NCBI GenBank assembly: GCA_017519185.1
Contig: JAFWSX010000006.1
Location: 96,084 to 160,083 of the forward strand
DNA: 64,000 bases
DNA from: Bacteroidales bacterium
Lineage (GTDB): Bacteria > Bacteroidota > Bacteroidia > Bacteroidales > UBA932
Direction: 5' to 3'
Position 1 is the stretch's first letter. Each line of letters opens with the position of its first letter. The position numbers and the translations under genes were made by a program. Shown one piece after another: positions 6,600 to 45,024 of the stretch. Under the pieces are notes generated by a model that saw nothing but the letters and a program-made list of their open reading frames with translations, was not told where the DNA came from and did not search any database.

Positions 6600-8018
6600 A
6601 TGGAAATGATCAAACAGTCTTTGCAGCAGAAGCAGGTCCAGAAGCTTTCTCCTCTCCAGATACAGACGATAAAGCTTTTGGAATTGCCTACCCTGGAGCT
6701 GGAGCAGAGGATCCAGAAGGAGCTCGAAGAAAACCCCGTGCTTGACGAGGTTAACGACGAGAACCCCGAGGAGGATGACGGCCTTCCCAAGAAGGTGTCG
6801 CTCAGCGACTATCCGGCAGACGACCAGACTCCCTCCTATAAGACCTATGTCAACAACCAGGGCAAGGATCTCAAACCGCAGTACAACACTTTTTCTGTCA
6901 AGGAGAGTTTCCATCAGAATCTCGAGTCCCAGCTCGGCTACTGTCATCTGACACCCAGAGCCCGCCAGATCGCCTCATTCATCATTGGAATGATCGATGA
7001 TGACGGCTATCTGCGCCGCGACCTTGAGTCACTTGCTGACGATATCTCGTTCCGTCTCAACATCGAGACAGATGTCAACGAGCTCGAAGACCTTCTGAGC
7101 ATAATTCAGGAGTTCGACCCTGTCGGTGTGGGAGCGAGGGACCTGCGCGAGTGCCTGCTGCTTCAGATCAAGGCTAAAACACACGACCAGGCTCAGCAGG
7201 ATGCCCAGGAAATCCTTGAGAACCACTTTGAGGAATTCACCAAGAAGCATTACTCGAAGATCCTCGCCAAGATGAAGATCAGCGAAGACAGGCTCAAAAA
7301 GGCGATTGAAGAGATAGTCCATCTGAATCCCCGTCCCGGAGGCCAGATCGACGACTCGTACAGCGAGCAGGCCCAGCAGGTGGTGCCTGATTTCGTCCTT
7401 GAACTGAAAGACGGCAAACCTGTTATGTCGATGCCCCGTTTCAATGTCCCCGAACTCAGGGTGAACAAGCGCTATGCCGACATCCTTATGGATTCCGCCT
7501 CCAAGTCTACAAAAGAAGGCAAGGAAGCAGTGACTTTCGTCAAGCAGAAACTGGATTCTGCCAAATGGTTCATCGAGGCGATCAAACAGAGGCAGCGCAC
7601 GCTCCAGAACACGATGAACGCCATAATCGAGTTCCAGTATGATTTCTTCATCGACGGCGACGAGACCAAGCTGAAGCCGATGGTCCTCAAGAATATAGCT
7701 GAGCGTACAGGGCTTGACATTTCTACAATTTCTCGTGTTGTGAACTGCAAATACATCCAGACACATTTCGGAATCTACCCCCTGAAGTATTTCTTCTCCG
7801 AAGGACTGATGACAGAAAGCGGTGAGGAAGTGTCTACCCGCGAGATAAAGAAGATCCTTACTGAAAGTATCGAGGCAGAAGACAAGTCCAAACCTCTGAC
7901 CGACGAGGAACTTGTGACCGTCCTCACGGAAAAAGGCTACAAGGTTGCCCGAAGGACCGTGGCCAAGTACAGGGAGCAGCTGAACATCCCCATAGCGCGC
8001 CTCCGCAAAGAGATATAA
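6600..8018 (+). CDS. rpoN: RNA polymerase sigma-54 factor
   Basis: 472 aa with an N-terminal Gln/Leu-rich activator-interaction region and a C-terminal RpoN box ARRTVAKYREQLNIP. Confidence 0.96.
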   Translation: MEMIKQSLQQKQVQKLSPLQIQTIKLLELPTLELEQRIQKELEENPVLDEVNDENPEEDDGLPKKVSLSDYPADDQTPSYKTYVNNQGKDLKPQYNTFSVKESFHQNLESQLGYCHLTPRARQIASFIIGMIDDDGYLRRDLESLADDISFRLNIETDVNELEDLLSIIQEFDPVGVGARDLRECLLLQIKAKTHDQAQQDAQEILENHFEEFTKKHYSKILAKMKISEDRLKKAIEEIVHLNPRPGGQIDDSYSEQAQQVVPDFVLELKDGKPVMSMPRFNVPELRVNKRYADILMDSASKSTKEGKEAVTFVKQKLDSAKWFIEAIKQRQRTLQNTMNAIIEFQYDFFIDGDETKLKPMVLKNIAERTGLDISTISRVVNCKYIQTHFGIYPLKYFFSEGLMTESGEEVSTREIKKILTESIEAEDKSKPLTDEELVTVLTEKGYKVARRTVAKYREQLNIPIARLRKEI

Positions 8019-10758: not shown

Positions 10759-13254
10759 ATGCTTAGAAAAATATTGCCCGATGTCATTGCCATAGTGGCA
10801 TTTGTCATCATATCTTTCGTCTACTTCTCACCTGCAGTCTTCCAGGGCCGCGTCCTTGCTGGAGATGACCACGTGGGAATGATCGGAGCCAACCAGGATG
10901 TAGTCGACTACAGAGATGCGACAGGAATATCTTCCCGCTGGACCAATTCCATATTCAGCGGCATGCCCAACTACCAGATGGCACCAAGCTATGATTCCCA
11001 GTTGCCTCTGAAGTTTATGGGAAAGGTCTACCATCTGTTCCTGCCGACCTACGTGTGGTATCTTTTCGTTCTTCTTCTGGGCTTCTACATAATGATGAGA
11101 GTTCTCGGCATGTCCGTTCTTCTTTCTGCGATGGGTGCCGTCATCTGGGCGTTTTCGTCATATTTCCTCATAATCATCGGTGCAGGGCACATCTGGAAGG
11201 TGACGGTGCTGGCATACGTTCCCCCGACCATAGCGGGCATTCTGCTTACATATCGGGGTAAATATCTTGTCGGAGGTCTTCTGGCCGCATTCTTCGCCGC
11301 ACTGCAGATATGCGCCAACCATATCCAGATGACTTACTATTTCCTTATCGTCATATTATTGCTTCTCGTTGCAGAAGCTGTGATGGCTGTTCGTGAAAAG
11401 CAGTTTCCGCGGTTCCTGAAAGCCACAGGAGTCTTGGCTATAGCCGCAATACTGGCAGTAGGGGTGAACATCTCTAACCTCTACCACACCTATGAGTACA
11501 GCAAGGAAAGTATGCGTAACGGAAGCGAACTGGTGAAGTCCGACAGCGAAAACCAGACTTCAGACGGTCTCGACAGGGATTATATCACTCAGTGGAGCTA
11601 TGGCGTCGGCGAGACCTTCTCTCTGCTGGTTCCGGATGTCAAGGGCGGCTCTTCCAGCATTCCTTTGAACAACCATAAGGCCGCCATCAGGAAGATTCCG
11701 GCTAACAACCGCCAGTATGTCGGACAGTTCGGCTCCTATTGGGGTGAGCAGCCTGGTACATCGGGCCCTGTGTATGTGGGTGCATTCGTTCTGTTCCTCT
11801 TCGTGCTAGGAATCTTCATAGTCAAGGGACCTGTGAAATGGGCTCTCGTGATAGCTACCGTATTGTCGATACTTCTCAGCTGGGGACATAACTTCATGTG
11901 GTTCACCAATCTGTTCATCGACCATTTCCCCCTCTACAGCAAGTTCAGGACGGTTTCATCGATACTCGTGATCGCTGAATTCACTATACCTTTCCTGGCC
12001 GTACTGGCCCTGAAGCAGATCATAGACGATCCGACGGTCATCAAGCGCCGCAAGGCAGCCTTCTGGGGCAGCGCCGCCCTGACCGGCGGTCTGGCTCTGC
12101 TGTTTGCCGTGATGCCCAGGCTATTCTTCCCGAGCTATGTTTCAAGTGCGGAACTGTCAGCTCTCAATACGCTCGACGAGCAGTCCCGGCTTATGCTGAC
12201 AGGCCTGATGGAAGATGTGCGTGTTTCGATTTTCACTGCCGATGCCTGGCGCAGTTTCGCAATAGTGGCAGTTGGAGTGGCTCTCCTGATGCTTTTCCGT
12301 GCAGGCAAGCTCAAGGCTAACGTTACAGTAGCCCTCTGTGCGGTTCTTTGTTTCGTGGATCTCTGGAGTGTCGACAAACGCTACCTCAACGACAGCCATT
12401 TCATTACTCCCAAGGCTTTGAACAAAGTGGCTGAGAAATCTCCGGCCGACGAGTATATTCTCCGTGATAACGACCCTGATTACCGCGTGCTGAACCTTTC
12501 GGCAAATGTATTCAATGACAACACGACGTCATACTGGCACAAGAGCATAGGCGGCTACAGTGCAGTGAAGCTCCGCCGTTATCAGGAAATGATCGAGGAG
12601 CATATCACTCCTGAAATAATGACCCTCTACGACGAGGTCGGCAAGACGAACGGTGATCTGGGCGCTATAGACGTCGCCAAGCTGCCTGTCCTCAATATGC
12701 TCAACACCCGCTATATAGAGTTCCCTCTATCCAGCGGGGAGACAATGCCGCTGCCCAACCCGAATGCGCTTGGAAACGGATGGTTTGTGGACAAGGTGAT
12801 TCCGGTGGAGGACGCCAATGCGGAGATCAGTCTGCTGCACGAAATCAATCCTGGCGAAGTGGCAGTGGTGGACAAGTCGTTCATCGACGCGGTCGGCAAC
12901 GGGGGAGCGGAAGGTACGGTCACATTGACCGAGTATGCCCCGAACAGACTGGTGTATGAAACCAGCAGTGCAAGAGCGGGCACAGTGGTGTTCTCAGAGG
13001 TCTACTACCCTTCGTGGCAGGCGTTCATAGACGGCAATGAAGTTAAAGTCGGCCGAGCTGACTATATCCTCAGAGCCCTTGCAGTTCCCGCCGGACAGCA
13101 TAAGGTGGAATTCGTGTTCGACCCTGTTTCACTGAAACGCACGGAACGGTTTGCCGGAATGTCTTTCGGCATTATGGTGGCAGCTGCATTGGTGATTCTC
13201 GGAAGCGCAGCCGGACGCTATTTGAAGAGAAGGCGCACTGCGAACCAGGCGTGA
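10759..13254 (+). CDS. YfhO-family polytopic membrane protein (GT-C-type extracytoplasmic glycosyltransferase-like)
   Basis: 831 aa. The N-terminal ~450 aa hold many TM helices, followed by a large soluble domain and a final TM helix. This is the size and layout of the bacterial YfhO family. Confidence 0.8.
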   Translation: MLRKILPDVIAIVAFVIISFVYFSPAVFQGRVLAGDDHVGMIGANQDVVDYRDATGISSRWTNSIFSGMPNYQMAPSYDSQLPLKFMGKVYHLFLPTYVWYLFVLLLGFYIMMRVLGMSVLLSAMGAVIWAFSSYFLIIIGAGHIWKVTVLAYVPPTIAGILLTYRGKYLVGGLLAAFFAALQICANHIQMTYYFLIVILLLLVAEAVMAVREKQFPRFLKATGVLAIAAILAVGVNISNLYHTYEYSKESMRNGSELVKSDSENQTSDGLDRDYITQWSYGVGETFSLLVPDVKGGSSSIPLNNHKAAIRKIPANNRQYVGQFGSYWGEQPGTSGPVYVGAFVLFLFVLGIFIVKGPVKWALVIATVLSILLSWGHNFMWFTNLFIDHFPLYSKFRTVSSILVIAEFTIPFLAVLALKQIIDDPTVIKRRKAAFWGSAALTGGLALLFAVMPRLFFPSYVSSAELSALNTLDEQSRLMLTGLMEDVRVSIFTADAWRSFAIVAVGVALLMLFRAGKLKANVTVALCAVLCFVDLWSVDKRYLNDSHFITPKALNKVAEKSPADEYILRDNDPDYRVLNLSANVFNDNTTSYWHKSIGGYSAVKLRRYQEMIEEHITPEIMTLYDEVGKTNGDLGAIDVAKLPVLNMLNTRYIEFPLSSGETMPLPNPNALGNGWFVDKVIPVEDANAEISLLHEINPGEVAVVDKSFIDAVGNGGAEGTVTLTEYAPNRLVYETSSARAGTVVFSEVYYPSWQAFIDGNEVKVGRADYILRALAVPAGQHKVEFVFDPVSLKRTERFAGMSFGIMVAAALVILGSAAGRYLKRRRTANQA

Positions 13255-13952
13255 TGCATCAGAGTGCTCGGCAGGCCATAATATTTGCGCATGATTGCGA
13301 ATCGCTCCTTGAGTGAAGCCTTCCGGTTGTCTATGGTTACTCCGCTGCCGTCTTCAAGGTAGTCCGCAACTATAAGGTGAGTGTTGTGAAGCGTTTCAGC
13401 TTTCTTCATTACTCGGATGCACCAGTCTACATCTGCTGAAAAACGGTATTTCGTGTCATAGGGCTCTGCAAGGTCCCTGCGTGCGTAGAAAGCCTGGTGG
13501 CAAACCAGCATTCCGTTCTTGAAACTCTTCCAGTCGAGATGTTCAGGCGGGCTAAGCCTGCGCATTCCGTAGATTTCGCCAACCATATTGGTAAGAGCAG
13601 TGTTTCCGTAAATCACTCCGGGAAGTTTGTCCAGTTTCTGCACCTGGTCTGCTATCTGCTCCAGCGTAGTATCCTCGTGGAAGCGGTCACCTGCGTTCAT
13701 AAACAGCACATAGTCGCCTGTCGCCAGCCTGAGGCCCTTGTTCATCGCATCGTAGAGCCCCTTGTCAGGCTCGCTGACAAGGATGTCGACCTTGCCCCGG
13801 TAACGGCCTATGATTTCCATTGTGGAGTCCTTGGATGCACCGTCGATTATGATGTATTCCTTGTCGGTCCAACTCTGGCCGATGACGCTCCTCAGGGTGC
13901 GCTCTATCGTCGCAGCCGCATTGTAGCAGATTGTTATTACGGAGAATTTCAT
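13218..13952 (-). CDS. Glycosyltransferase family 2
   Basis: MKFSVITICYNAAATIERTLRSV...IIIDGASKDST...D.GLYDAMNKG is the GT2 (GT-A) nucleotide-sugar binding pattern. It has an ATGA overlap with the upstream GT4 gene. Confidence 0.9.
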   Translation of the reverse strand: MKFSVITICYNAAATIERTLRSVIGQSWTDKEYIIIDGASKDSTMEIIGRYRGKVDILVSEPDKGLYDAMNKGLRLATGDYVLFMNAGDRFHEDTTLEQIADQVQKLDKLPGVIYGNTALTNMVGEIYGMRRLSPPEHLDWKSFKNGMLVCHQAFYARRDLAEPYDTKYRFSADVDWCIRVMKKAETLHNTHLIVADYLEDGSGVTIDNRKASLKERFAIMRKYYGLPSTLMHHAWFAVRLLFK

Positions 13953-36816: not shown

Positions 36817-38247
36817 ATGGCTGAAACTTCAACAAAAGAATCGAAAGGCTTCTATAAGTTGTCCTGGGGCCAGAGAATCGGCTTCGGTGCCGGAGACATG
36901 GCGCAGAACCTTGTCTACCAGACCATAAGCATCTGGCTGCTCTTCTTTTACACAAATGTCTTCGGGCTCAAGCCCGGCGCAGCTGCCCTGATGTTCCTTA
37001 TCGTCCGCCTCGTGGACGTCCTCTGGGATCCGGTTGTCGGTACCATCGTTGACAAGAAAAATCCCAAGTGGGGCAAATACCGTTCTTGGCTCATACTTGG
37101 CGGTATTCCGCTGGTCGGCCTTGCCATCCTCTGCTTCTGGAACGGTTTCAGCGGCTCTCTGCTGTATGCCTACATCACATATGTGGGTATGTCTATGTGC
37201 TACACTCTTGTGAATGTGCCTTATGGTGCTCTGAATGCTTCGCTTACCCGCGACACCAATGAGATCACCATCCTGACGTCCACCCGTATGTTCATGGCCA
37301 ATCTCGGCGCCCTCTGCGTGAAGTCTCTGCCCCTCATCATCGCCATCTTCGCTCCGAAGGTGCTCGATCCAGCCACCGGCAAGATGACAGCTGTCTACAA
37401 TACTCCTGAAGCGGCTCCCGCCTGGTTCATCACTATGACCATCTTCGCCCTGGCCGGCCTCGCCCTGCTGTTCTTCTGCTTCGCGAAGTGTAAAGAACGT
37501 GTCGTTATGGACGAGAAAGAGTCAGCCAACGTCAAGGTCAGCGACTTGTGGATGGAGTTCGGCCGCAACAAGCCTTTGCGGATAGTTGCCTTCTTCTTCA
37601 TCACTGCCTTTGCAATGATGAGCGTCAGCAACGCTGCAGATGCCTACTTCATGACTTTCAATGTGGGTGCGACTCCGCTTCTCACAACATTGTTCATGTG
37701 GCTTGGTACGATTCCGGCGTTTATATTTATGCCCCTCGTTCCGGCCATCAAGCGCAAGATCGGCAAGAAAGGAATGTTCTACCTCTTCCTTGGCGTTGCG
37801 ATACTCGGTATGATGATGATGTACACGTTCGTGTCCATCCCTGCCACCAAGAGCAACTTCGTGCTGCTCTGCATCGCCCAGTTCGTCAAGTCTACAGGCA
37901 TCATCACTGCTACCGGTTATATGTGGGCTCTCGTGCCTGAGGTTATCTCTTACGGTGAATATACGACCGGCAAGCGCATCGCCGGCATCGTAAATGCTCT
38001 TACAGGCATCTTCTTCAAAGCCGGTATGGCTCTTGGCGGCGTTGTTCCCGGTCTCGTACTCGCGTGGGTAGGTTTCAATGCCGATGCCGCCCAGCAGACT
38101 CCGCTTGCACTCCAGGGTATCCTCTGGCTTGTCTGCGTCATCCCGGCGATCCTGCTCCTCCTTGCCATCTTCATCATCAGCAAGTATGAGCTCAGCGACG
38201 AGCGAATGGACGAGATCAACCGCGAAATCGAAGCCCGTCACGCATAG
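36817..38247 (+). CDS. Glycoside-pentoside-hexuronide (GPH):cation symporter family MFS transporter
   Basis: GFGAGDMAQNLVYQ, and DPVVGTIVDKKNPKWGKYRSW as the GPH D-x-x-x-D/R-x-G-K-x-R-P/S-W loop. 12 TM helices, 476 aa. Confidence 0.9.
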   Translation: MAETSTKESKGFYKLSWGQRIGFGAGDMAQNLVYQTISIWLLFFYTNVFGLKPGAAALMFLIVRLVDVLWDPVVGTIVDKKNPKWGKYRSWLILGGIPLVGLAILCFWNGFSGSLLYAYITYVGMSMCYTLVNVPYGALNASLTRDTNEITILTSTRMFMANLGALCVKSLPLIIAIFAPKVLDPATGKMTAVYNTPEAAPAWFITMTIFALAGLALLFFCFAKCKERVVMDEKESANVKVSDLWMEFGRNKPLRIVAFFFITAFAMMSVSNAADAYFMTFNVGATPLLTTLFMWLGTIPAFIFMPLVPAIKRKIGKKGMFYLFLGVAILGMMMMYTFVSIPATKSNFVLLCIAQFVKSTGIITATGYMWALVPEVISYGEYTTGKRIAGIVNALTGIFFKAGMALGGVVPGLVLAWVGFNADAAQQTPLALQGILWLVCVIPAILLLLAIFIISKYELSDERMDEINREIEARHA

Positions 38248-38274
38248 TCTGCACTAAGGCTCATTCTGATATGA

Positions 38275-38307
38275 CTGCGGACCGCAATCAGCGGCCCGCA
38301 GTTTTTT
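38275..38307 (+). terminator. Intrinsic terminator after the GPH symporter gene
   Basis: Stem CTGCGGACCGC / GCGGCCCGCAG (one mismatch) with a 5-nt loop, followed by T6. Confidence 0.8.
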
Positions 38308-38314
38308 ATGCACG

Positions 38315-38373
38315 CTCTGCACGTTTTGAAAGTCCTCTGCGAGTTTTGAAAGCGCCGGTTTCCCCGTTTTGAG
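38315..38373 (+). promoter_or_regulatory. Tandem direct repeats (candidate activator/operator site)
   Basis: CTCTGCACGTTTTGAAAG lies at 38315-38332 and CTCTGCGAGTTTTGAAAG at 38335-38352, 16/18 identical with an exact 20-bp period. A third half-copy, CGTTTTGAG, at 38365-38373 overlaps the -33 TTTG. Confidence 0.55.
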
Positions 38374-38396
38374 CATAGACAGATAAGGATATGCAG

Positions 38397-38404
38397 TATC
38401 TTTG
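38397..38404 (+). promoter_or_regulatory. -7 box TATCTTTG for the small ORF / lipoprotein unit
   Basis: Matches TAnnTTTG, with TTTG at 38368-38371 in a -33-like position. It is 82 nt upstream of ATG 38487. Confidence 0.5.
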
Positions 38405-38486
38405 AAACCATTACAATTAACTTGCTGATAATCAATTGTTGTTTAACAGAATTCTTAAGTCAGGATAATATATATAAAACAATACT

Positions 38487-38630
38487 ATGGAAAAACGTTA
38501 CAAGGAACTCTATGAAGCGCCGTTGACAGAAGTCGTGGAGCTGAATACGAATGCAGGAATTCTCTCTGCCACAACAGAAGATTACACAATGTCAGGCAAC
38601 AGCTATGACGATTCTGATTTTCACGAGTAG
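38487..38630 (+). CDS. Unannotated 47-aa acidic small protein (hypothetical)
   Basis: Hand translation gives MEKRYKELYEAPLTEVVELNTNAGILSATTEDYTMSGNSYDDSDFHE*. It has no signal peptide and no Cys. It ends 12 nt before the lipoprotein ATG on the same strand, and is below the 60-aa cutoff of the ORF track. Confidence 0.4.
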   Translation: MEKRYKELYEAPLTEVVELNTNAGILSATTEDYTMSGNSYDDSDFHE

Positions 38631-38642
38631 GAGGGCAGCAGT

Positions 38643-41600
38643 ATGAAACAAAGAATTACCATTATTATTGCAGCGTTTGCTTTCTTAGCCCTTGTATCCT
38701 GCACAGATGGGATAGTTTCCAATGTCGATCCTGTGCAATCGGCCAATCCCGAAGGTGGCGTAGTGTTCACAGCCACTACGGAAGGCCCAGCCACGAAAAC
38801 AACTTTATCAGGTGATGATGAGAACGGCTACCAGGTCAACTGGCAGAGCGGAGACATGATTGCCGTAAGAAACTATGTATTCGGAACACCACCTGTAGTA
38901 TTCTACACTACCACCAGCAATACCACCTACGGTGAGTTTACCTACGACAGTGGTGCTGAAGAATTGACAAACCCGCCTTACTATGCCTTTTATCCTGCAG
39001 AATACTGGAGTGAACAAAATGCAGCATATCCTGTAGTCCAGAAACACGTCCCTGGAGCGGTAAAGGCTCCGATGTTTGCCTATAGCGAAACCAATCATCT
39101 CCAGTTCAAGAATATCGGCGGTCTTGTCAGGATTAACCTCAAAACTCCTTTGACAGGAAAAAAGATCAAGAAAATCTATCTCTATTCCACCTCCCAGAGC
39201 TTGAGCGGCACCATTACAAACATAACCTCACTTAACAGCAATCCTACCGCAACTGTTGACAAAAACAGTCCGGCCCAGCATCCTGTGGTATTGGAATGCT
39301 GCAATGAAGGCGTGGAGATAGGTTCCTCTCCTACGCCATTCTACATCGCAGTTCCGGCAAACACCTATACCGAACTCACGATAGGTGTAATCACCGTAGA
39401 CGGCATAAAGCAGACTTACACCCTGAATTCAGACAAGAGCATAGTTGTAGAGAGAAGTGCCATTACCGACATAAACCTTACTTTCAACAAGGATCCTGAA
39501 ATCATCGACCTCAGCGAAAACGGTACGGCCAACACCTATATAGTAAATACTGTGGGCTACTATAAGTTCAAGGCTACCGTAAAGGGTAACGGCGGGCTCG
39601 ACCCTGTCACCGGAACAACGGCCACGGAGATAAACAAGAACGACATCAGCGGAGTAACGGTACTATGGGACCTCAAGCAGAGAGGCAATGTCGTATACCA
39701 CGACGGAAAAATGCAGTCCCATCATATTGTTTACCACGACGGCTACATATATTTCTACAAAAACTATAACCTTGAAGGAAACTCTTATGTGGCCATTTTC
39801 AAGGACAAGGAAGGCGGAACCGACGGAGTCTATGACAAGGGAATAGATGAGATCCTCTGGAGCTGGCTCATCTGGGCGACACAAAATCCTTCCAGCGTGG
39901 TTTACAACGGCAACGAGTTCATGGACCGCAACATCGGCTCTGTTACTACCGGAACTTTCGACGACGGAAAATACACCGCAGGTTTCAGCTATCAGTGGGG
40001 AAGACCTGCCCCGTTCGCGTCTTCATTAGGGCAGGCATATACTCCTTTCAATTACGTCCCTCCAAGAACCTCTGTCTTCTCATTTGAAAACATAGGAAAC
40101 GGAACTACCGTAGACCACGCCACTTCACATCCAGTCACATTCTTCTACCATGGCAGCAGAAGCAACTGGATGCCGGATAATGCAACTTGCATGACCCTTT
40201 GGTCAGATGACGTCAAAACCATTTATGACCCGTCACCAATAGGCTGGAAAGTTCCTTCAAAGGCCCAACTGACCGGAATAACATCTGCAGTGTCCTTCTA
40301 TGGATCCGGTTTTATCGGCCCTGGCAGCAGTTCAGATTTCGGATATGGAAATCCTGGCTCCGTTTTGCTGTGGAGCAGTACCTGTGACGACAGTGACGGT
40401 TTCATTGGAGCCTGGGCTAACGCGTATGGCTCAATGTATAAAAAATATGGAAGTTGGCCTGACGTATATATGATGGCCGGTATGCCTGTCCGTCCTGTAA
40501 GAGACGAGTCAACTATGACCTGGGTCGACCTCAGTGCTTCCGGTACAGCCAACAGCTACATAGTTCCCGGATCCGGCAACTACAAGTTCAAGGCAACTGT
40601 AAGGGGCAACGGCGCTGCAGACCTTGCCGGAGTAAGCAAGAACATCAGCGCATCCGAAATTGCCTCCGCATCTCTGGTTTGGGCTAGCTACGGCACAACA
40701 ACAGCTCCGGGAGAAGCTGAGATGTTGTTCAACGTTCATTATCAGGATGGCTATGTCTATTTCCGTGTTCCCGACACTTTCAGGGCAGGCAATGCTGTGG
40801 TTGCAGTAATGAATGCTTCCAACCAGTATCTGTGGAGCTGGCATCTCTGGTTCACCGATGCAGACATTGAAGGCAAAGCCCAGACATATCCAAGCGGAGC
40901 CCAGATGATGGACCGCAACCTGGGGGCCCTGAGCGCCACCTACAATTCATCCAACACGGCAGACTGGGGGCTTATGTACCAGTGGGGAAGGAAGGAACCG
41001 TTCCTGAACTCCTGGAGCAATCAGTATAGCTCCGGCTATATTTCATCATCCAATGCAGGAACTGTGTACAGGCCGGCCGTTTGGGGAACCAATGAAAGCA
41101 TTGTAACTGCATATCAGGCCAATTCTACCGTTGCTGCGGTAAACAGACTGTCACCTACATATCTTTACAGCAGCTGGTACATAAGCAGTTCTCAGTCTGG
41201 TCAGTTGGAATGGGCTTCTGACATGACGGACAATCTCTGGGCAGAAGACAAGACCATCTTTGACCCTTGCCCTGCCGGGTGGAAGGTTCCGGACAAAGCT
41301 GTCTGGGAAGGTTCCTTCATGACCAGCCTTGCCAATGCAACATTCTCCAACAATGGATTCACCGTTTCCGGCATCAGATACCCCAGCACCGCTGTCAGAC
41401 TGCCTCAATCCATTTACATAAACGGCACCAAATACAACAACGGCGGTCTAATACTTGAGAACCAGTCTGATTACCATGTCTTTCTCTGGGCTTTCAACGG
41501 ACAGTTGCACAAGGAGAAATTCAATTATGAAAACGAAGGGCAATATTCACAGGCTCTCCCTGTAGCACCCGGGGTTTATTCAAATCCTCCGATAAGAAGC

Positions 41601-41729
41601 TCTTTCGTCCAAGAGTATGACTTTTCTATAGCATATACTGCGTGGCGACAGGATGCAGGAATGCCAAGTCACTCTACATCTTATTTCTATAGGACCAGAG
41701 CCGGCGCCGTACGCTGCGTTCGGGAATAA
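38643..41729 (+). CDS. Large surface lipoprotein: fimbrillin(Mfa)-like N-terminal region plus two tandem ~340-aa modules, each ending in a FISUMP-like (Fibrobacter succinogenes major paralogous, lectin-like) domain
   Basis: Lipobox AFLALVSC. The N-terminal VVFTATTEG..TKTTL...VNWQSGDMIAV pattern matches Bacteroidales fimbrillin-like proteins. The repeated motif sets are GTAN(T/S)YIV...YKFKATV(K/R)GNG, LWSW(L/H)(I/L)W, MDRN(I/L)G, YQWGR, DP(S/C)P(I/A)GWKVP and VR(P/C)VR(D)E. Confidence 0.85.
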   Translation: MKQRITIIIAAFAFLALVSCTDGIVSNVDPVQSANPEGGVVFTATTEGPATKTTLSGDDENGYQVNWQSGDMIAVRNYVFGTPPVVFYTTTSNTTYGEFTYDSGAEELTNPPYYAFYPAEYWSEQNAAYPVVQKHVPGAVKAPMFAYSETNHLQFKNIGGLVRINLKTPLTGKKIKKIYLYSTSQSLSGTITNITSLNSNPTATVDKNSPAQHPVVLECCNEGVEIGSSPTPFYIAVPANTYTELTIGVITVDGIKQTYTLNSDKSIVVERSAITDINLTFNKDPEIIDLSENGTANTYIVNTVGYYKFKATVKGNGGLDPVTGTTATEINKNDISGVTVLWDLKQRGNVVYHDGKMQSHHIVYHDGYIYFYKNYNLEGNSYVAIFKDKEGGTDGVYDKGIDEILWSWLIWATQNPSSVVYNGNEFMDRNIGSVTTGTFDDGKYTAGFSYQWGRPAPFASSLGQAYTPFNYVPPRTSVFSFENIGNGTTVDHATSHPVTFFYHGSRSNWMPDNATCMTLWSDDVKTIYDPSPIGWKVPSKAQLTGITSAVSFYGSGFIGPGSSSDFGYGNPGSVLLWSSTCDDSDGFIGAWANAYGSMYKKYGSWPDVYMMAGMPVRPVRDESTMTWVDLSASGTANSYIVPGSGNYKFKATVRGNGAADLAGVSKNISASEIASASLVWASYGTTTAPGEAEMLFNVHYQDGYVYFRVPDTFRAGNAVVAVMNASNQYLWSWHLWFTDADIEGKAQTYPSGAQMMDRNLGALSATYNSSNTADWGLMYQWGRKEPFLNSWSNQYSSGYISSSNAGTVYRPAVWGTNESIVTAYQANSTVAAVNRLSPTYLYSSWYISSSQSGQLEWASDMTDNLWAEDKTIFDPCPAGWKVPDKAVWEGSFMTSLANATFSNNGFTVSGIRYPSTAVRLPQSIYINGTKYNNGGLILENQSDYHVFLWAFNGQLHKEKFNYENEGQYSQALPVAPGVYSNPPIRSSFVQEYDFSIAYTAWRQDAGMPSHSTSYFYRTRAGAVRCVRE
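39501..41726 (+). repeat. Internal tandem duplication inside the lipoprotein gene (module 1 39501-40520, module 2 40521-41726)
   Basis: GACCTCAGCGAAAACGGTACGGCCAACACCTATATAGT at ~39507 matches GACCTCAGTGCTTCCGGTACAGCCAACAGCTACATAGT at ~40527. The offset is exactly 1020 bp (340 codons), and the protein motifs repeat in the same order. Confidence 0.8.
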
Positions 41730-41743
41730 AAAGAGAAAAAGGA

Positions 41744-41751
41744 TATCTTTG
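41744..41751 (+). promoter_or_regulatory. -7 box TATCTTTG immediately before the TM-AraC gene
   Basis: Matches TAnnTTTG, 5 nt upstream of ATG 41757. Confidence 0.35.
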
Positions 41752-41756
41752 CAGGT

Positions 41757-43418
41757 ATGAAGCGTTCCGTCCTCATACTTCTTGCTATCCTCGCCGCGGC
41801 GTGCCAAAGTCCAGGTGTTGTGGACCCGTCCAGTCACGACGGTTATGAGTTCCACAAGATGTACGTCGAGCTGCTGCCGGACCTAAACGTACCGCGCAGC
41901 GGGCATAAGCTGGCTTATGTCGGCGGAGAACTGACGGTGATAGGGGGGCACACGACTGGTTTCATTCCCACGTCCACGGCCGAGTACTACAGCGATGGAG
42001 AGTGGCATCTTGTGAACACTCTGTACCCGCACGATTGCGGCTTCTGCGTCGTCCTTCCGTCTGAGGAAATCATAGTCGGCGGCGGCTGCGCCGAACCCTT
42101 CGGTATCGGGCAGACATGGGCTGTGGAGAAGTATGACCCCATATCACACAGTTTCTCCCCGCTTCCGATCCTTGACAGCAAACGTGGAGCCAACGTAATG
42201 GCGGCCCGATTTTCCGACGGCCGCATAATAGTGGCAGGCAACTGGTATGCAGAAGATGTGATATCAACCTACTCGCCCGAATCCGGAGGAACGATCCTTC
42301 GGATTCCGACAATAGGGCGTGCCCATCCGCTTATATTGCAGACCTCGCCTGACAATGCTGTTGTCTTGGGTTCTGTAGGCGAGCGGAATGACATCCTGCC
42401 TCCTGTGGCGGACCGTTTGAGTGGAGATTCTTTCGAAGTGCCGCTGTTGCAGGAGTGGGAGGATTGGTTAATCCCGGGGGGGCAGCAGATGAGTCACTTG
42501 TTCATTGGTGACGAGACAGTGGGTGGTTATGCCTGGCTCTTTCCTGCCGCACGCAAGTCAGATGGTCAGCTGGCTCTGATCAAAGTGGTGGGAGAGACAT
42601 TCTCCGTGCTGGAAACCGAGAAACCACTGCTGATGGATAGTCCTTATAGGGAGCCTCTTTCGCTTTATCCCATGCTGCTTGCCGACAGAGATCGGGAATG
42701 CGCCTGGATAATCCGCACTGTCATTGGAACGAGTGATATCTCTGTGACCAAAGTAGATTATGGCGAAGCTCTTCGTGGCGGCAAGGCTCCGGTAAGCGAC
42801 TATCGTGCTGAACTGCCGGACGGCCTGCTTGCTCCGTGTGAGATTTGGGCGACACTCCTGCCCGGAGGCCGCATCGCCGTTGTCGGGGGCCTTACTTCTC
42901 CGGACAACTATAACCCCAGTGCCGCCGCATTCATCCTGCATACGGAGCCGGAACAGCCAAGTGTAATCCAATGGTGGATGATTGTTTGTGCTTTAGTGCT
43001 GCTTGGCGCTGCCGGAGTTTTTCTGGCCTTTCGTTCCGGAAAAGGCAGGAATGGGCGCGAACAGGTGCCGGAGGGCCCGATGGATGAACTTATGAAGCGT
43101 ATTGCGGTTCAGATGGAGGAAAACCATCTGTTCCTGAGGCCGGGTCTGACAAAAGAAGAAGTTGCACTGGCCGTCGGCTCCAATTCCCGCTATGTGTCCG
43201 ACTGCATCAATCTTAAAGCCGGCTGCTCATTCATCGATTTTGTAAACGATTACCGCATCCGGTATGCACAGCGGCTTTTGTATGAGAATCCTGATATGCG
43301 TGTCGGCGAAATCAGCGAAGAATCCGGCTTCTCCAGCGAAGTCACATTCTACCGCAATTTCAAGGCACGCACCGGCCAGACTCCTACAGAGTGGCTGGCT
43401 TCACAAAGCCGTATGTAA
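41757..43418 (+). CDS. Membrane-spanning one-component regulator: lipoprotein-type signal, periplasmic Kelch/beta-propeller-like domain, one TM helix, cytoplasmic AraC-type HTH
   Basis: MKRSVLILLAILAAAC signal with lipobox. Kelch-like repeats include PRSGHKLAYVGGELTVIGGH, IIVGGG and RIIVAGNWY. The TM helix WWMIVCALVLLGAAGVFLAF is at ~42972-43034. The C-terminal AraC signature is YVSDCINLKAGCSFIDFVNDYRIRYAQRLL...ISEESGFSSEVTFYRNFKARTGQTPTEW. Confidence 0.85.
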   Translation: MKRSVLILLAILAAACQSPGVVDPSSHDGYEFHKMYVELLPDLNVPRSGHKLAYVGGELTVIGGHTTGFIPTSTAEYYSDGEWHLVNTLYPHDCGFCVVLPSEEIIVGGGCAEPFGIGQTWAVEKYDPISHSFSPLPILDSKRGANVMAARFSDGRIIVAGNWYAEDVISTYSPESGGTILRIPTIGRAHPLILQTSPDNAVVLGSVGERNDILPPVADRLSGDSFEVPLLQEWEDWLIPGGQQMSHLFIGDETVGGYAWLFPAARKSDGQLALIKVVGETFSVLETEKPLLMDSPYREPLSLYPMLLADRDRECAWIIRTVIGTSDISVTKVDYGEALRGGKAPVSDYRAELPDGLLAPCEIWATLLPGGRIAVVGGLTSPDNYNPSAAAFILHTEPEQPSVIQWWMIVCALVLLGAAGVFLAFRSGKGRNGREQVPEGPMDELMKRIAVQMEENHLFLRPGLTKEEVALAVGSNSRYVSDCINLKAGCSFIDFVNDYRIRYAQRLLYENPDMRVGEISEESGFSSEVTFYRNFKARTGQTPTEWLASQSRM

Positions 43419-43446
43419 GCCGGGCGGCGTTTGATTCTGGCCGGAA

Positions 43447-45024
43447 TCAATAAGTCGTCTTGATGCGCGAGGCTGTCAGTGTTATGTCTCGGTTCGAAGA
43501 AGCCGGGGCAGGATTGCCTTGGAACCTGCGCTGCTCCGGAGCTACGATCGTTATAGTGAGGTCATCTCTGTCGGGGGAGAAGTTGAAGCGGAAGCGTTCC
43601 TGACAACCGTTGTTGAACAATGACAGGTAATAGGCCCCCAACTCATCGGCTCCTGTCCAGGCACACCAGCCCGCAGTTGTCATCGGCGTGGTGTTCATCG
43701 TGTTGGCATAGACGGTCCCGCCGAAAAGCAGGGTTCTGTCCGTGCTGCCCATCTGCCAGTTGTCCAGGCCGAAAGGTATGTTGTGGATGGCTTCGCCTGT
43801 CTCAAGGGTAAGAGTCATATTGCCCTTGGCGTCGAAACGGAAGGAGATTCCGGTGAGTCCGTATGAGTTCTGGTGCATCCTGTAGCGCAGGGTGCGGGAA
43901 CGTTCTGCCGGTGCGGCAGATGGCTCGGGGAACGGCTTCTTCAGGGCATAGGGCTCGATGGCCGCCTGCAGGTCAAAGTTCTTGTTGGGCTTGAGTTTCT
44001 TGTCGCTCATTCCGTCCAGCAGATTGTATATGAGTTGGTTGAATCCGGCTTCATCGCCAATCTGGCCGTTCGATGCCACCACAAGGTCGTATTCAGGGAT
44101 AACCATTATCAGTTGGTTCTGGCCACCGATGGCTCGCCAGGAATTGTGCCGTCCCATCCATATCTGGTATCCGTAGCCCTGTCCGCCGTCATCCTTGTTG
44201 TTTTCCTCTTCGGAAAGACCCGGTCGCTGGAAAATGTGAGGCGTTGTCATACCCTCCACCCATTCGCGGTTCAGCAGTTGCTTGCCTTGCCATACGCCTT
44301 TGTTCTTCAGAAAAATGCCGAACTTGGCCAGGTCCGAAGTCTTGCTGTGCATGCCGCCGTTGCCCATATTGCGGCCGTCCAGGTCCATCTCCCATGTTAC
44401 GTCGCGGATTCCCAGAGGATCCAGCAGGCGCGGTTTCAGGTATTCATACAGAGTAAGGCCGGTCACGCGGGTGATGATTTGTGAGAGCATATGGGAACAG
44501 GTTATATTGTAGGCGAACGATGTGCCCGGTTCGTGGGCGTAGTCCATAGCCAGGAAAGAGCGCACCTGATCGTCACCGGAGCCGGGATACTGTGTGCGGG
44601 CATGACCGGCCGACATCGTCAGAAGGTGTTCCACAGTCAGTCGTTCCAGTTCCGGGGCAGTCTTTTCCGGCATCAGGTCGGGGAAGAAATCCGTTACCTT
44701 GTCGCTCACTTTCAGCAGCCCCTCCTGCACTGCAAAACCGACTGCTGCACCAGTGAAGGTCTTGGTGGCAGAATACATTGCGTGAGGGTACTGCGGGCCA
44801 TAGGGCGCCCACCAGTGCTCGGCCACCACTTTGTCGTGCCTGAGCAGCATCAGTCCGTGGACCTCGTAACCGCCCTCTTCCAGGGCACGGAACCAGTCTG
44901 AAATGGCTTCCGAGCGGATGCCTTCCGCCTCCGGAGTGCTGCGTTGCAAACCGTCGTCATATACCTGTGCTGACAGTCCAAAGGAGATGCAGAGGACTGC
45001 TAAAAGGATAATAGTCTTTTTCAT
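43447..45024 (-). CDS. Serine hydrolase of the beta-lactamase/class C-like (transpeptidase-fold) family, secreted, with C-terminal extra domain
   Basis: Signal peptide, an S-x-x-K active-site motif (YSATKTF), and a ~150-aa C-terminal extension after the hydrolase fold. Confidence 0.85.
   Translation of the reverse strand: MKKTIILLAVLCISFGLSAQVYDDGLQRSTPEAEGIRSEAISDWFRALEEGGYEVHGLMLLRHDKVVAEHWWAPYGPQYPHAMYSATKTFTGAAVGFAVQEGLLKVSDKVTDFFPDLMPEKTAPELERLTVEHLLTMSAGHARTQYPGSGDDQVRSFLAMDYAHEPGTSFAYNITCSHMLSQIITRVTGLTLYEYLKPRLLDPLGIRDVTWEMDLDGRNMGNGGMHSKTSDLAKFGIFLKNKGVWQGKQLLNREWVEGMTTPHIFQRPGLSEEENNKDDGGQGYGYQIWMGRHNSWRAIGGQNQLIMVIPEYDLVVASNGQIGDEAGFNQLIYNLLDGMSDKKLKPNKNFDLQAAIEPYALKKPFPEPSAAPAERSRTLRYRMHQNSYGLTGISFRFDAKGNMTLTLETGEAIHNIPFGLDNWQMGSTDRTLLFGGTVYANTMNTTPMTTAGWCAWTGADELGAYYLSLFNNGCQERFRFNFSPDRDDLTITIVAPEQRRFQGNPAPASSNRDITLTASRIKTTY

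Follow-up and report, generated by a model that had tools for sequence, protein, structure and literature searches.

In Bacteroides, the tip adhesins of type V pili follow an established design, in which a pilin N-domain is joined to a C-type-lectin head; made as lipoprotein precursors, these proteins undergo export to the surface and cleavage at a basic residue (bioRxiv 10.1101/2024.11.15.621889). In Legionella, the DUF1566 domain of Lcl is C-type-lectin-like and binds glycosaminoglycans (PMC11162425). The present study concerns a gene for a lipoprotein of 1028 amino acids (aa) in a 64,000-nucleotide (nt) stretch of the genome of an uncultured, gut-type Bacteroidales bacterium (assembly GCA_017519185.1, contig JAFWSX010000006.1, positions 96,084 to 160,083), which is called the window below and to which all coordinates refer unless another locus is named; the gene and the cassette features described with it all lie on the + strand. 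According to our analysis, there is about an even chance that the product of this gene is an outer-membrane, lipid-anchored, two-headed lectin-like cell-surface adhesin, in which a pilin-fold base carries two tandem heads, each composed of an A and a B domain.

The open reading frame (ORF; 38643..41729) is uninterrupted, and its translation begins MKQRITIIIAAFAFLALVSC. A hydrophobic signal sequence precedes the lipobox LVS-C20 (together 38643..38702), the Cys of which is conserved across homologs. A previous sequence-only reading of this DNA had noticed the lipobox, which is borne out by the translation, as well as two tandem modules, and every motif that it quoted was found: GTANTYIV, YKFKATVKGNG, LWSWLIW, MDRNIG, YQWGR, DPSPIGWKVP and VRPVRDE in module 1, and GTANSYIV, YKFKATVRGNG, LWSWHLW, MDRNLG, YQWGR, DPCPAGWKVP and VRCVRE in module 2. 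Alignment of module 1 (residues 286-630) with module 2 (631-1028) gives 29% identity over 282 columns (E 3e-28), and the internal duplication is also seen in the DNA as short blocks spaced 1020 nt apart. The lipoprotein ORF and its internal duplication are real, and the duplication is far beyond chance. A search of PDB sequences with the 1028-aa protein gave no meaningful match. In addition to the whole protein, five pieces corresponding to its domains (N, A1, B1, A2 and B2) were scanned separately.

The N domain (residues 21-285; 38703..39497) is predicted to be a two-beta-sandwich base of the type V pilin kind. The AlphaFold2 (AF2) model of residues 20-290 had a predicted local distance difference test score (pLDDT) of 82 and a predicted template modelling score (pTM) of 0.81. 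Its best Foldseek matches in the PDB were structures of the Bacteroidales type V pilin superfamily (FimA/Mfa), with E values from 1.5e-7 to about 4e-3 (3ufi, 3t2l, 4k4k, 4eps, 3sy6, 4rdb, 5dhm and 5nf4). The first six of these entries were matched at E 1.5e-7 to 1.5e-5 with a probability of 1.00 and a query TM-score (TMq) of 0.32-0.50, and the proteins concerned are BACOVA_04980 (3ufi), BF1858, BACUNI_00621, the tip pilin BACOVA_04982 (4eps), BF1861 and PG_0181; Mfa4 and Mfa3 rank lower. Beyond approximately E 7e-5, Gram-positive pilins and the TIE protein of B. anthracis are interspersed in the list. Also matched was BT_0210 (4ecn), a leucine-rich repeat (LRR) protein whose pilin-like base aligns to the N domain. 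No Pfam fimbrillin model (P_gingi_FimA, Mfa_like_1 or Mfa2) matches the whole protein or the N piece. The fimbrillin-like N-terminus that had been proposed from the sequence is therefore upheld by the predicted fold, not by sequence models, and we conclude that the N domain, as modelled, has the type V pilin fold.

A search of the same genome with the N base found a single paralog (31% identity), located on contig C14 (locus L002, 1040-3376) and fused to a long BspA-type LRR array. In relatives, the N base is also fused to Laminin_G together with A-B heads. Since the base carries LRRs in the paralog and Laminin_G or A-B heads in relatives, it may be regarded as a general pedestal for binding domains.

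The first domain of each module is designated A. A1 (residues 286-419; 39498..39899) contains the motifs GTANxYIV, YKFKATVKGNG and LWSWxIW and is modelled by AF2 as all-beta, with a pLDDT of about 70-91; its Foldseek matches were weak and generic, Ig-like, with E of at least 0.03. A2 (residues 628-748; 40524..40886) is a paralog of A1 by sequence comparison. A profile of 24 A sequences found no relative in Pfam or among PDB sequences. In a library of 1.84 billion representatives, the A domain was present at E<=0.001 in 546 representative proteins or clusters, with 1-6 copies in each.

The second domain of each module, B, was assigned in the sequence-only reading to the Fibrobacter succinogenes major paralogous (FISUMP) family, TIGR02145. 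B1 comprises residues 420-627 (39900..40523), and B2, which has large insertions, comprises residues 749-1028 plus the stop codon (40887..41729). On the B2 piece, PF09603 (Fib_succ_major) gave E 0.0068 and 17.1 bits over profile positions 62-187, below its cut-off of 33.9, and it gave nothing on B1. Among 21 related B domains, seven matched PF09603 weakly (best 6.5e-7) and five matched PF07603 (Lcl_C) weakly; the 1028-aa protein itself had no direct PF07603 match. The canonical FISUMP lipoprotein of the same genome (locus L003), used as a control, was recovered by TIGR02145 with 113.9 bits (1.3e-32).

The relationship emerged from comparison of alignments, for which canonical FISUMP domains were drawn from genomes of the same order. 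Using hhalign, the B alignment was matched to the canonical FISUMP alignment with a probability of 97.4% (E 1.5e-11, 125 columns), and an independent comparison of 42 B representatives with 33 canonical domains gave 97.6-98.0% (E 1.4e-12 to 3.4e-12). The canonical alignment was needed, since a single FISUMP sequence could be aligned to the B profile at the CPxGW motif alone. The pairings were WMAENL with MDRNLGA, CPxGWHVP with DPCPxGWKVP, the P.GYR and WWSS blocks, and the terminal SVRCVKD. Compared with canonical FISUMP, the N-terminal third of B is remodelled (MDRNLGA, YQWGRKDPF, an insert of 40-60 aa, HPTTF), and the stretch from YQWGRKDPF to HPTTF is an extra conserved segment without a counterpart in the canonical domain. 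Neither the B profile nor the canonical FISUMP profile matched a solved structure among PDB sequences. Thus, the B domains lie below the curated cut-offs and are nevertheless related to FISUMP by hhalign, which makes them, judging from these alignments, a remote and remodelled relative of FISUMP and not a member by the curated models. The assignment in the sequence-only reading holds as remote homology and fails as family membership. The hidden Markov model (HMM) check that it had proposed, with TIGR02145 and the Pfam fimbrillin families, found curated support for neither the FISUMP nor the fimbrillin assignment.

The two B domains differ at the signature cysteines. In B1 both are lost (DPSPIGWKVP, PVRPVRDE) and GRPAPF replaces GRKDPF; in B2 both are kept (DPCPAGWKVP, AVRCVRE). 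Across 221 B domains, the residue pair at these positions is C/C in 124, S/P in 48, C/P in 34, S/C in 14 and C/A in one, a split that is compatible with a putative disulfide having been dispensed with in some lineages. That the B domains are catalytic (for example glycan- or protein-modifying, on a C-type-lectin or FGE-like scaffold) and not binding modules is a possibility that we consider very improbable. The strongly conserved polar blocks MDRNLGA, YQWGRKDPF and KTIYDPCP, which are absent from canonical FISUMP, speak for it, but no enzyme family was matched in Pfam, NCBIfam or PDB sequences, the PA that B1 has for the KD of GRKDPF would be unlikely for a catalytic dyad, and the relatives of known function bind ligands (PMC11162425). 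Elsewhere in the same genome, on contig C19 (locus L004, 190-1947), a 585-aa protein with coiled-coil-like repeats of about 33 residues (LIEAAVK...) ends in a FISUMP/DUF1566-like domain; PF09603 scores 18.6 bits on it, and its lollipop architecture recalls Lcl.

Among the scored candidates, 1487 relatives of the lipoprotein were found at E<=0.001, and all of the named ones are from uncultured Bacteroidales. Their modularity was mapped by placing the five protein pieces on the best 120 relatives. The layout of the family is an N domain followed by 1-4 A-B units, with occasional Big_2, Laminin_G_3 or beta-helix inserts; in these 120 proteins A and B always co-occur, with A ahead of B. Within the genus, full-length relatives have a patchy distribution, and a sampling of 12 other families of the order found none.

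Based on these results, we propose that the lipid at Cys20 would anchor the protein by its N-terminus and that the pilin-fold base of about 265 aa would hold two non-identical heads off the membrane. Each head would consist of an all-beta domain fused to a divergent FISUMP/DUF1566-type (C-type-lectin-like) domain. With 29% identity between them and with differences in conserved loop positions and in the Cys pair, the heads probably recognize separate ligands, for which glycans from the host, from the diet or from other microbes are the most plausible candidates. No polymerisation of the protein would take place. Its expression would be driven by an own promoter of a cassette that consists of a small acidic ORF, an AGGAGG box, the lipoprotein gene and the gene for a membrane-spanning Kelch-AraC regulator, and this regulator probably controls the cassette. 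The following elements are inferred: that the protein is exposed at the surface and keeps its lipid anchor, that it binds ligands and is specific for glycans, and that the neighbouring gene regulates it.

Several observations weigh against this proposal. Scans of Pfam-A and NCBIfam with the whole 1028-aa protein gave no match even at E<=1, and TIGR02145 gave none at E<=10 on any of the five pieces. The pLDDT of the AF2 model of module 1 falls below 50 over model residues 153-237 and 262-329, that is, in B1; the Foldseek search with this module is therefore informative for the A domain alone, and weakly so, and with such a confidence of the B fold the term "lectin-like" rests on remote sequence homology only. 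Furthermore, Lys52 sits where type V pilins are cleaved, the FimA-like genes of the genome share its strand-plus-TK(S/A) pattern, and cleavage at this residue, if it occurs, would remove the lipid anchor. Finally, the sequence after the lipobox Cys, C-T-D-G-I-V, has one acidic residue, which is below the minimal export signal of surface lipoproteins (PMC5080379).

The position of Lys52 leads to an alternative that remains serious, although we rate it as clearly less probable than a stand-alone adhesin: the protein may be the tip adhesin of a type V pilus. In this case, cleavage after Lys52 upon export would remove the lipid and the first strand, the groove thus emptied would be filled by the donor strand from a stalk pilin of contig C4 or C26, and the heads would be at the filament tip. 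Lys52 (in ATK-T, just after the first beta-strand) is nearly invariant among homologs and lies in a low-confidence loop of the AF2 model, 32 residues from the lipidated Cys. The base has the predicted pilin fold, in the FimA-family ORFs of the genome a strand is likewise followed, at an equal distance, by TK(S/A) or SK(S), and two pilus-like loci are present in the genome; moreover, C-terminal heads are tolerated on tip pilins, and the cleavage site of BfrT is R43 (bioRxiv 10.1101/2024.11.15.621889). However, in the known systems the gene for the tip adhesin is found immediately downstream of those for anchor and stalk (bioRxiv 10.1101/2024.11.15.621889), and no anchor or stalk gene was found in the cassettes of this family. 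The Pfam FimA and Mfa models give no match on the base, which also shows no detectable sequence similarity to the C4 or C26 pilins, and the Lys may be conserved for structural reasons or by ancestry. Since a head takes up the C-terminus, no donor strand is free there, which excludes a role as stalk subunit. The C-terminal position of the heads, together with cassettes that lack stalk and anchor genes, favours the stand-alone adhesin.

No stalk or anchor pilin gene was found in the 8+ cassettes examined. The neighbours of the lipoprotein gene are a major facilitator superfamily (MFS) transporter gene, the small ORF, the Kelch-AraC regulator gene and a beta-lactamase-family gene. Genome matches to PF06321 are confined to contigs C4 and C26, searches of the genome with PF13149 and PF08842 gave no match, and no pilin-family gene is present on the contig of the window. 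The conclusion of the sequence-only reading that the locus is not a type V pilus operon is thus supported, both for this contig and for the related cassettes, by the absence of anchor and stalk pilin genes.

The two type V pilus-like loci are located at C4:22150-31561, with six lipoprotein genes, and at C26:69078-78993, with five; their products are 334-1108 aa long. Four ORFs on C4 and one on C26 match P_gingi_FimA, and in several of the lipoproteins the strand-plus-TK(S/A) motif follows the lipobox Cys at a distance of about 25-35 residues. Pfam detected no Mfa2-type anchor in either locus. As regards diversity-generating retroelements (DGRs), the 100%-complete genome contains no match to the reverse transcriptase model RVT_1, and no template/variable (TR/VR)-like repeat was found within 38200-43600; a DGR-diversified adhesin is excluded on these grounds.

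In the export signal of surface-exposed Bacteroidetes lipoproteins, a polar or basic residue precedes two acidic ones, at +3 to +5 after Cys+1 (PMC5080379). Homologs of the protein are mostly acidic at +3 to +5 after the lipobox Cys; the closest ones have C-T-Q-E-D-K, and many others have C-Q-R-E-x-D or C-V-K-E-P. This evidence bears on a further alternative, namely that the lipoprotein faces the periplasm or is a vesicle cargo and binds a periplasmic ligand, for example in cooperation with the Kelch-AraC sensor. The weak motif CTDG with its single acidic residue (PMC5080379) and the periplasmic Kelch domain of the partner regulator would fit such a role. We nevertheless find it distinctly unlikely, in view of the acidic residues in most homologs and of features typical of surface proteins, that is, a pilin-fold base, multiple heads, and LRR, LamG and Big_2 partners; furthermore, BovT and BfiT are without a pilin-like N domain.

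A stand-alone surface adhesin also has to be considered in its genetic context. The sequence-only reading had called the gene solitary, which is contradicted by the comparison of loci: the gene belongs to a conserved cassette with a small ORF and a Kelch-AraC regulator that has a transmembrane (TM) segment. The left edge of the cassette is the intrinsic terminator of the upstream MFS transporter gene, a hairpin with a U-run (38273..38303; folding energy -21.2 kcal/mol, z -3.2, UUUUUU) that was also seen as an inverted repeat. Three phased direct repeats of the CTCTGCxxGTTTTGA type, spaced by 20 and 23 bp, were found by a repeat search at 38313..38372, upstream of the presumed promoter, and are candidate sites for an AraC-type regulator. 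The -7 promoter consensus of Bacteroidetes is TAnnTTTG, and the box TATCTTTG at 38397..38404, which fits this consensus, is the presumed promoter of the cassette as far as can be read from the sequence. A sigma-70 promoter scan, based on a model ill-suited to Bacteroidetes promoters, returned no more sites than in shuffled sequence. An invertible promoter (phase variation) was considered and rejected, since the terminator hairpin was the only inverted repeat found in 38200-38700.

The first cistron of the cassette is an acidic small ORF of 47 aa (MEKRYKELYEAPLTEVVELNTNAGILSATTEDYTMSGNSYDDSDFHE; 38487..38630) without a signal peptide and without a Pfam match, recognized by homologous ORFs at related loci. 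The homologs are 42-51 aa long (most of them 45-51) and end 10-15 nt before pilin-base lipoprotein genes in loci L005, L008 and L010 and in five further same-genus loci (L057-L061). Their consensus, M..K..YEAP.tEv..l..EG.iC.SGd.E.y.dG..YGD.DF, is likewise acidic and without a signal peptide. Together with the gap that follows it, the small ORF occupies 38487-38642 in the window, and in L005 the members lie at 7834-7989, 11036-11182 (as in L010) and 13757-13903. A word-index search gave 11 clusters of this small-ORF family, and a local HMM search of the retrieved loci found a member at every family locus. In the equivalent site of a relative (locus L062, 7256-9551, on contig C1 of genome G055), a distant small-ORF homolog (E 6e-4) is separated by 1 nt from a different lipoprotein gene of 717 aa, without AGGAGG. 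The gene of the C14 paralog directly follows a gene for a Big_2-repeat protein and has no small ORF ahead of it.

Locus comparison also identified a Shine-Dalgarno-like AGGAGG box (38629..38634), which overlaps the stop codon of the small ORF and stands 8 nt before the ATG of the lipoprotein gene. It is found ahead of the lipoprotein ATG in 9/9 family loci; AGGAG or GGAGG occurs within 20 nt upstream of 45 of the 1111 long ORFs of this genome (about 4%). Shine-Dalgarno boxes are rarely used in the phylum.

The last gene of the cassette (41757..43418) starts 27 nt past the lipoprotein stop codon, and no terminator-like site was found in this gap. It encodes a 553-aa regulator with a lipoprotein-type signal, a Kelch-repeat domain (Kelch_6, Kelch_1), one TM segment and an AraC-type helix-turn-helix (HTH_18, 2.7e-16). 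A second TATCTTTG octamer, again similar to the Bacteroidetes -7 box, is located at 41743-41750, 6 nt ahead of the regulator ATG, so that the regulator might also have a nearly leaderless promoter of its own. Orthologs of the regulator, with 39% identity over the full length, close the cassettes in L005 and L008, and they were also found in L059 and L061, two of the five further same-genus loci. Homologs at 81% and 71% identity reside in another chromosomal neighbourhood, adjoining uvrC, within the same cassette; there, the small ORF and the lipoprotein gene are followed by one or two further pairs of a small ORF and an N-base lipoprotein with LamG/A-B heads, and then by the regulator.

As a rather doubtful extension of the adhesin proposal, these loci may represent a self-contained "sense-and-display" cassette that moves between genomic sites. 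In such a cassette, a one-component membrane regulator with a periplasmic Kelch propeller and an AraC output would switch on 1-3 pilin-base lectin lipoproteins, the genes of which would each have to be preceded by the acidic peptide of about 47 aa and by the Shine-Dalgarno box that is rare in this genome. The peptide would be a dedicated cofactor for this class of lipoprotein; it may, for example, couple translation as a leader, serve as an escort in the cytoplasm or counteract an activator.

The sequence-only reading had also described the gene as more AT-rich than its neighbours. The computed values agree, without making the gene an extreme outlier: its GC content is 48.7%, compared with 53-56% in the neighbours and 53.0% in the genome, and its GC at third codon positions (GC3) is 53.4% (mean 66.3, standard deviation 7.5), so that both values fall at the 6th percentile of 1043 long ORFs. 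Among the same ORFs, the part that encodes the N domain is at the 3rd-4th percentile and the GC3 of the regulator gene at the 14th percentile.

Nucleotide similarity to five same-genus genomes, which is 86-89% across rlmN-recA-trpS-MFS, ends precisely at the left boundary of the cassette, at 38307, in all five, and the sequence beyond this breakpoint differs in each of them. The synteny breakpoints, common to the five genomes, lie at 38307/38308 and 43443/43444. The beta-lactamase-family gene lies beyond the cassette in the window; in one of the same-genus genomes it is found about 490 bp past the MFS gene, inverted and without a cassette. In two of the five, the LemA-DUF2207 pair, which is located at 48.9-51.3 kb of the window, directly adjoins the MFS gene, which means that reshuffling within the genus has affected all of the 38-51 kb stretch. 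Neither mobility genes nor an integrase was found in the cassette, and no flanking direct or inverted repeats were found within 38200-43600; the idea of a mobile element was rejected due to the lack of flanking repeats and of an integrase in the cassette. The cassette is accessory and has been relocated at a rearrangement-prone site. Its horizontal acquisition, which had been suggested from composition, is plausible: the 6th-percentile GC3 and the synteny break speak for it, whereas the absence of mobility genes and flanking repeats does not.

Bacteroidales of the gut and rumen carry very many unannotated surface lipoproteins, and one sizeable family of these can now be described as a pilin-fold pedestal with repeated heads. 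The family thereby gains a testable function, adhesion or ligand capture, and two domains missed by the curated libraries are flagged. Moreover, the conserved small ORF, the Shine-Dalgarno box and the Kelch-AraC partner offer an easy genetic entry to the question of how these adhesins are turned on.

Compared with the canonical FISUMP proteins (TIGR02145/PF09603), one of which is encoded separately in the same genome (L003), the B domains have the CPxGW.VP and SVRCVKD signatures in common and likewise occur in lipoproteins, but they are below both curated cut-offs, are remodelled in their N-terminal third and are always preceded by an A domain. The C-terminal domain of Lcl from Legionella pneumophila (DUF1566, PF07603) belongs to the same broad sequence superfamily as B, and Lcl is likewise an adhesin head on a stalk, which binds host glycosaminoglycans (PMC11162425); it differs in being a collagen-stalked trimer, without disulfides and secreted by the type II system. 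The proteins of the BT_0210 type (4ECN) and the BspA-like LRR lipoproteins share with our protein a pilin-like base that carries a non-pilin binding domain, a design that the C14 paralog reproduces exactly, but their payload is leucine-rich repeats, whereas here it is A-B heads.

A close parallel is provided by the Bacteroides tip adhesins BfrT, BthT and BunT, with the static homolog BovFim1C (4EPS; bioRxiv 10.1101/2024.11.15.621889), which is among the top Foldseek matches of the N domain. In both cases a lipoprotein precursor has an N domain of pilin fold, joined through a beta domain to a C-terminal lectin-type head, which in our protein would be lectin-like by remote homology. The Bacteroides proteins have one head, whereas two tandem divergent FISUMP-like heads are present here. 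Unlike their systems, the present one has no reverse transcriptase, no TR/VR repeat and no anchor or stalk genes at the locus, and it has dedicated cassette partners, the small acidic ORF and the Kelch-TM-AraC regulator. Overall, the combination of a pilin base with a lectin head is already known, and in the papers that we found there is no description of a tandem A-B head invisible to curated models, of a coupled small ORF with a Shine-Dalgarno box, or of a Kelch-TM-AraC partner. Our analysis thus extends, and does not change, the known picture of pilin-based lectin adhesins.

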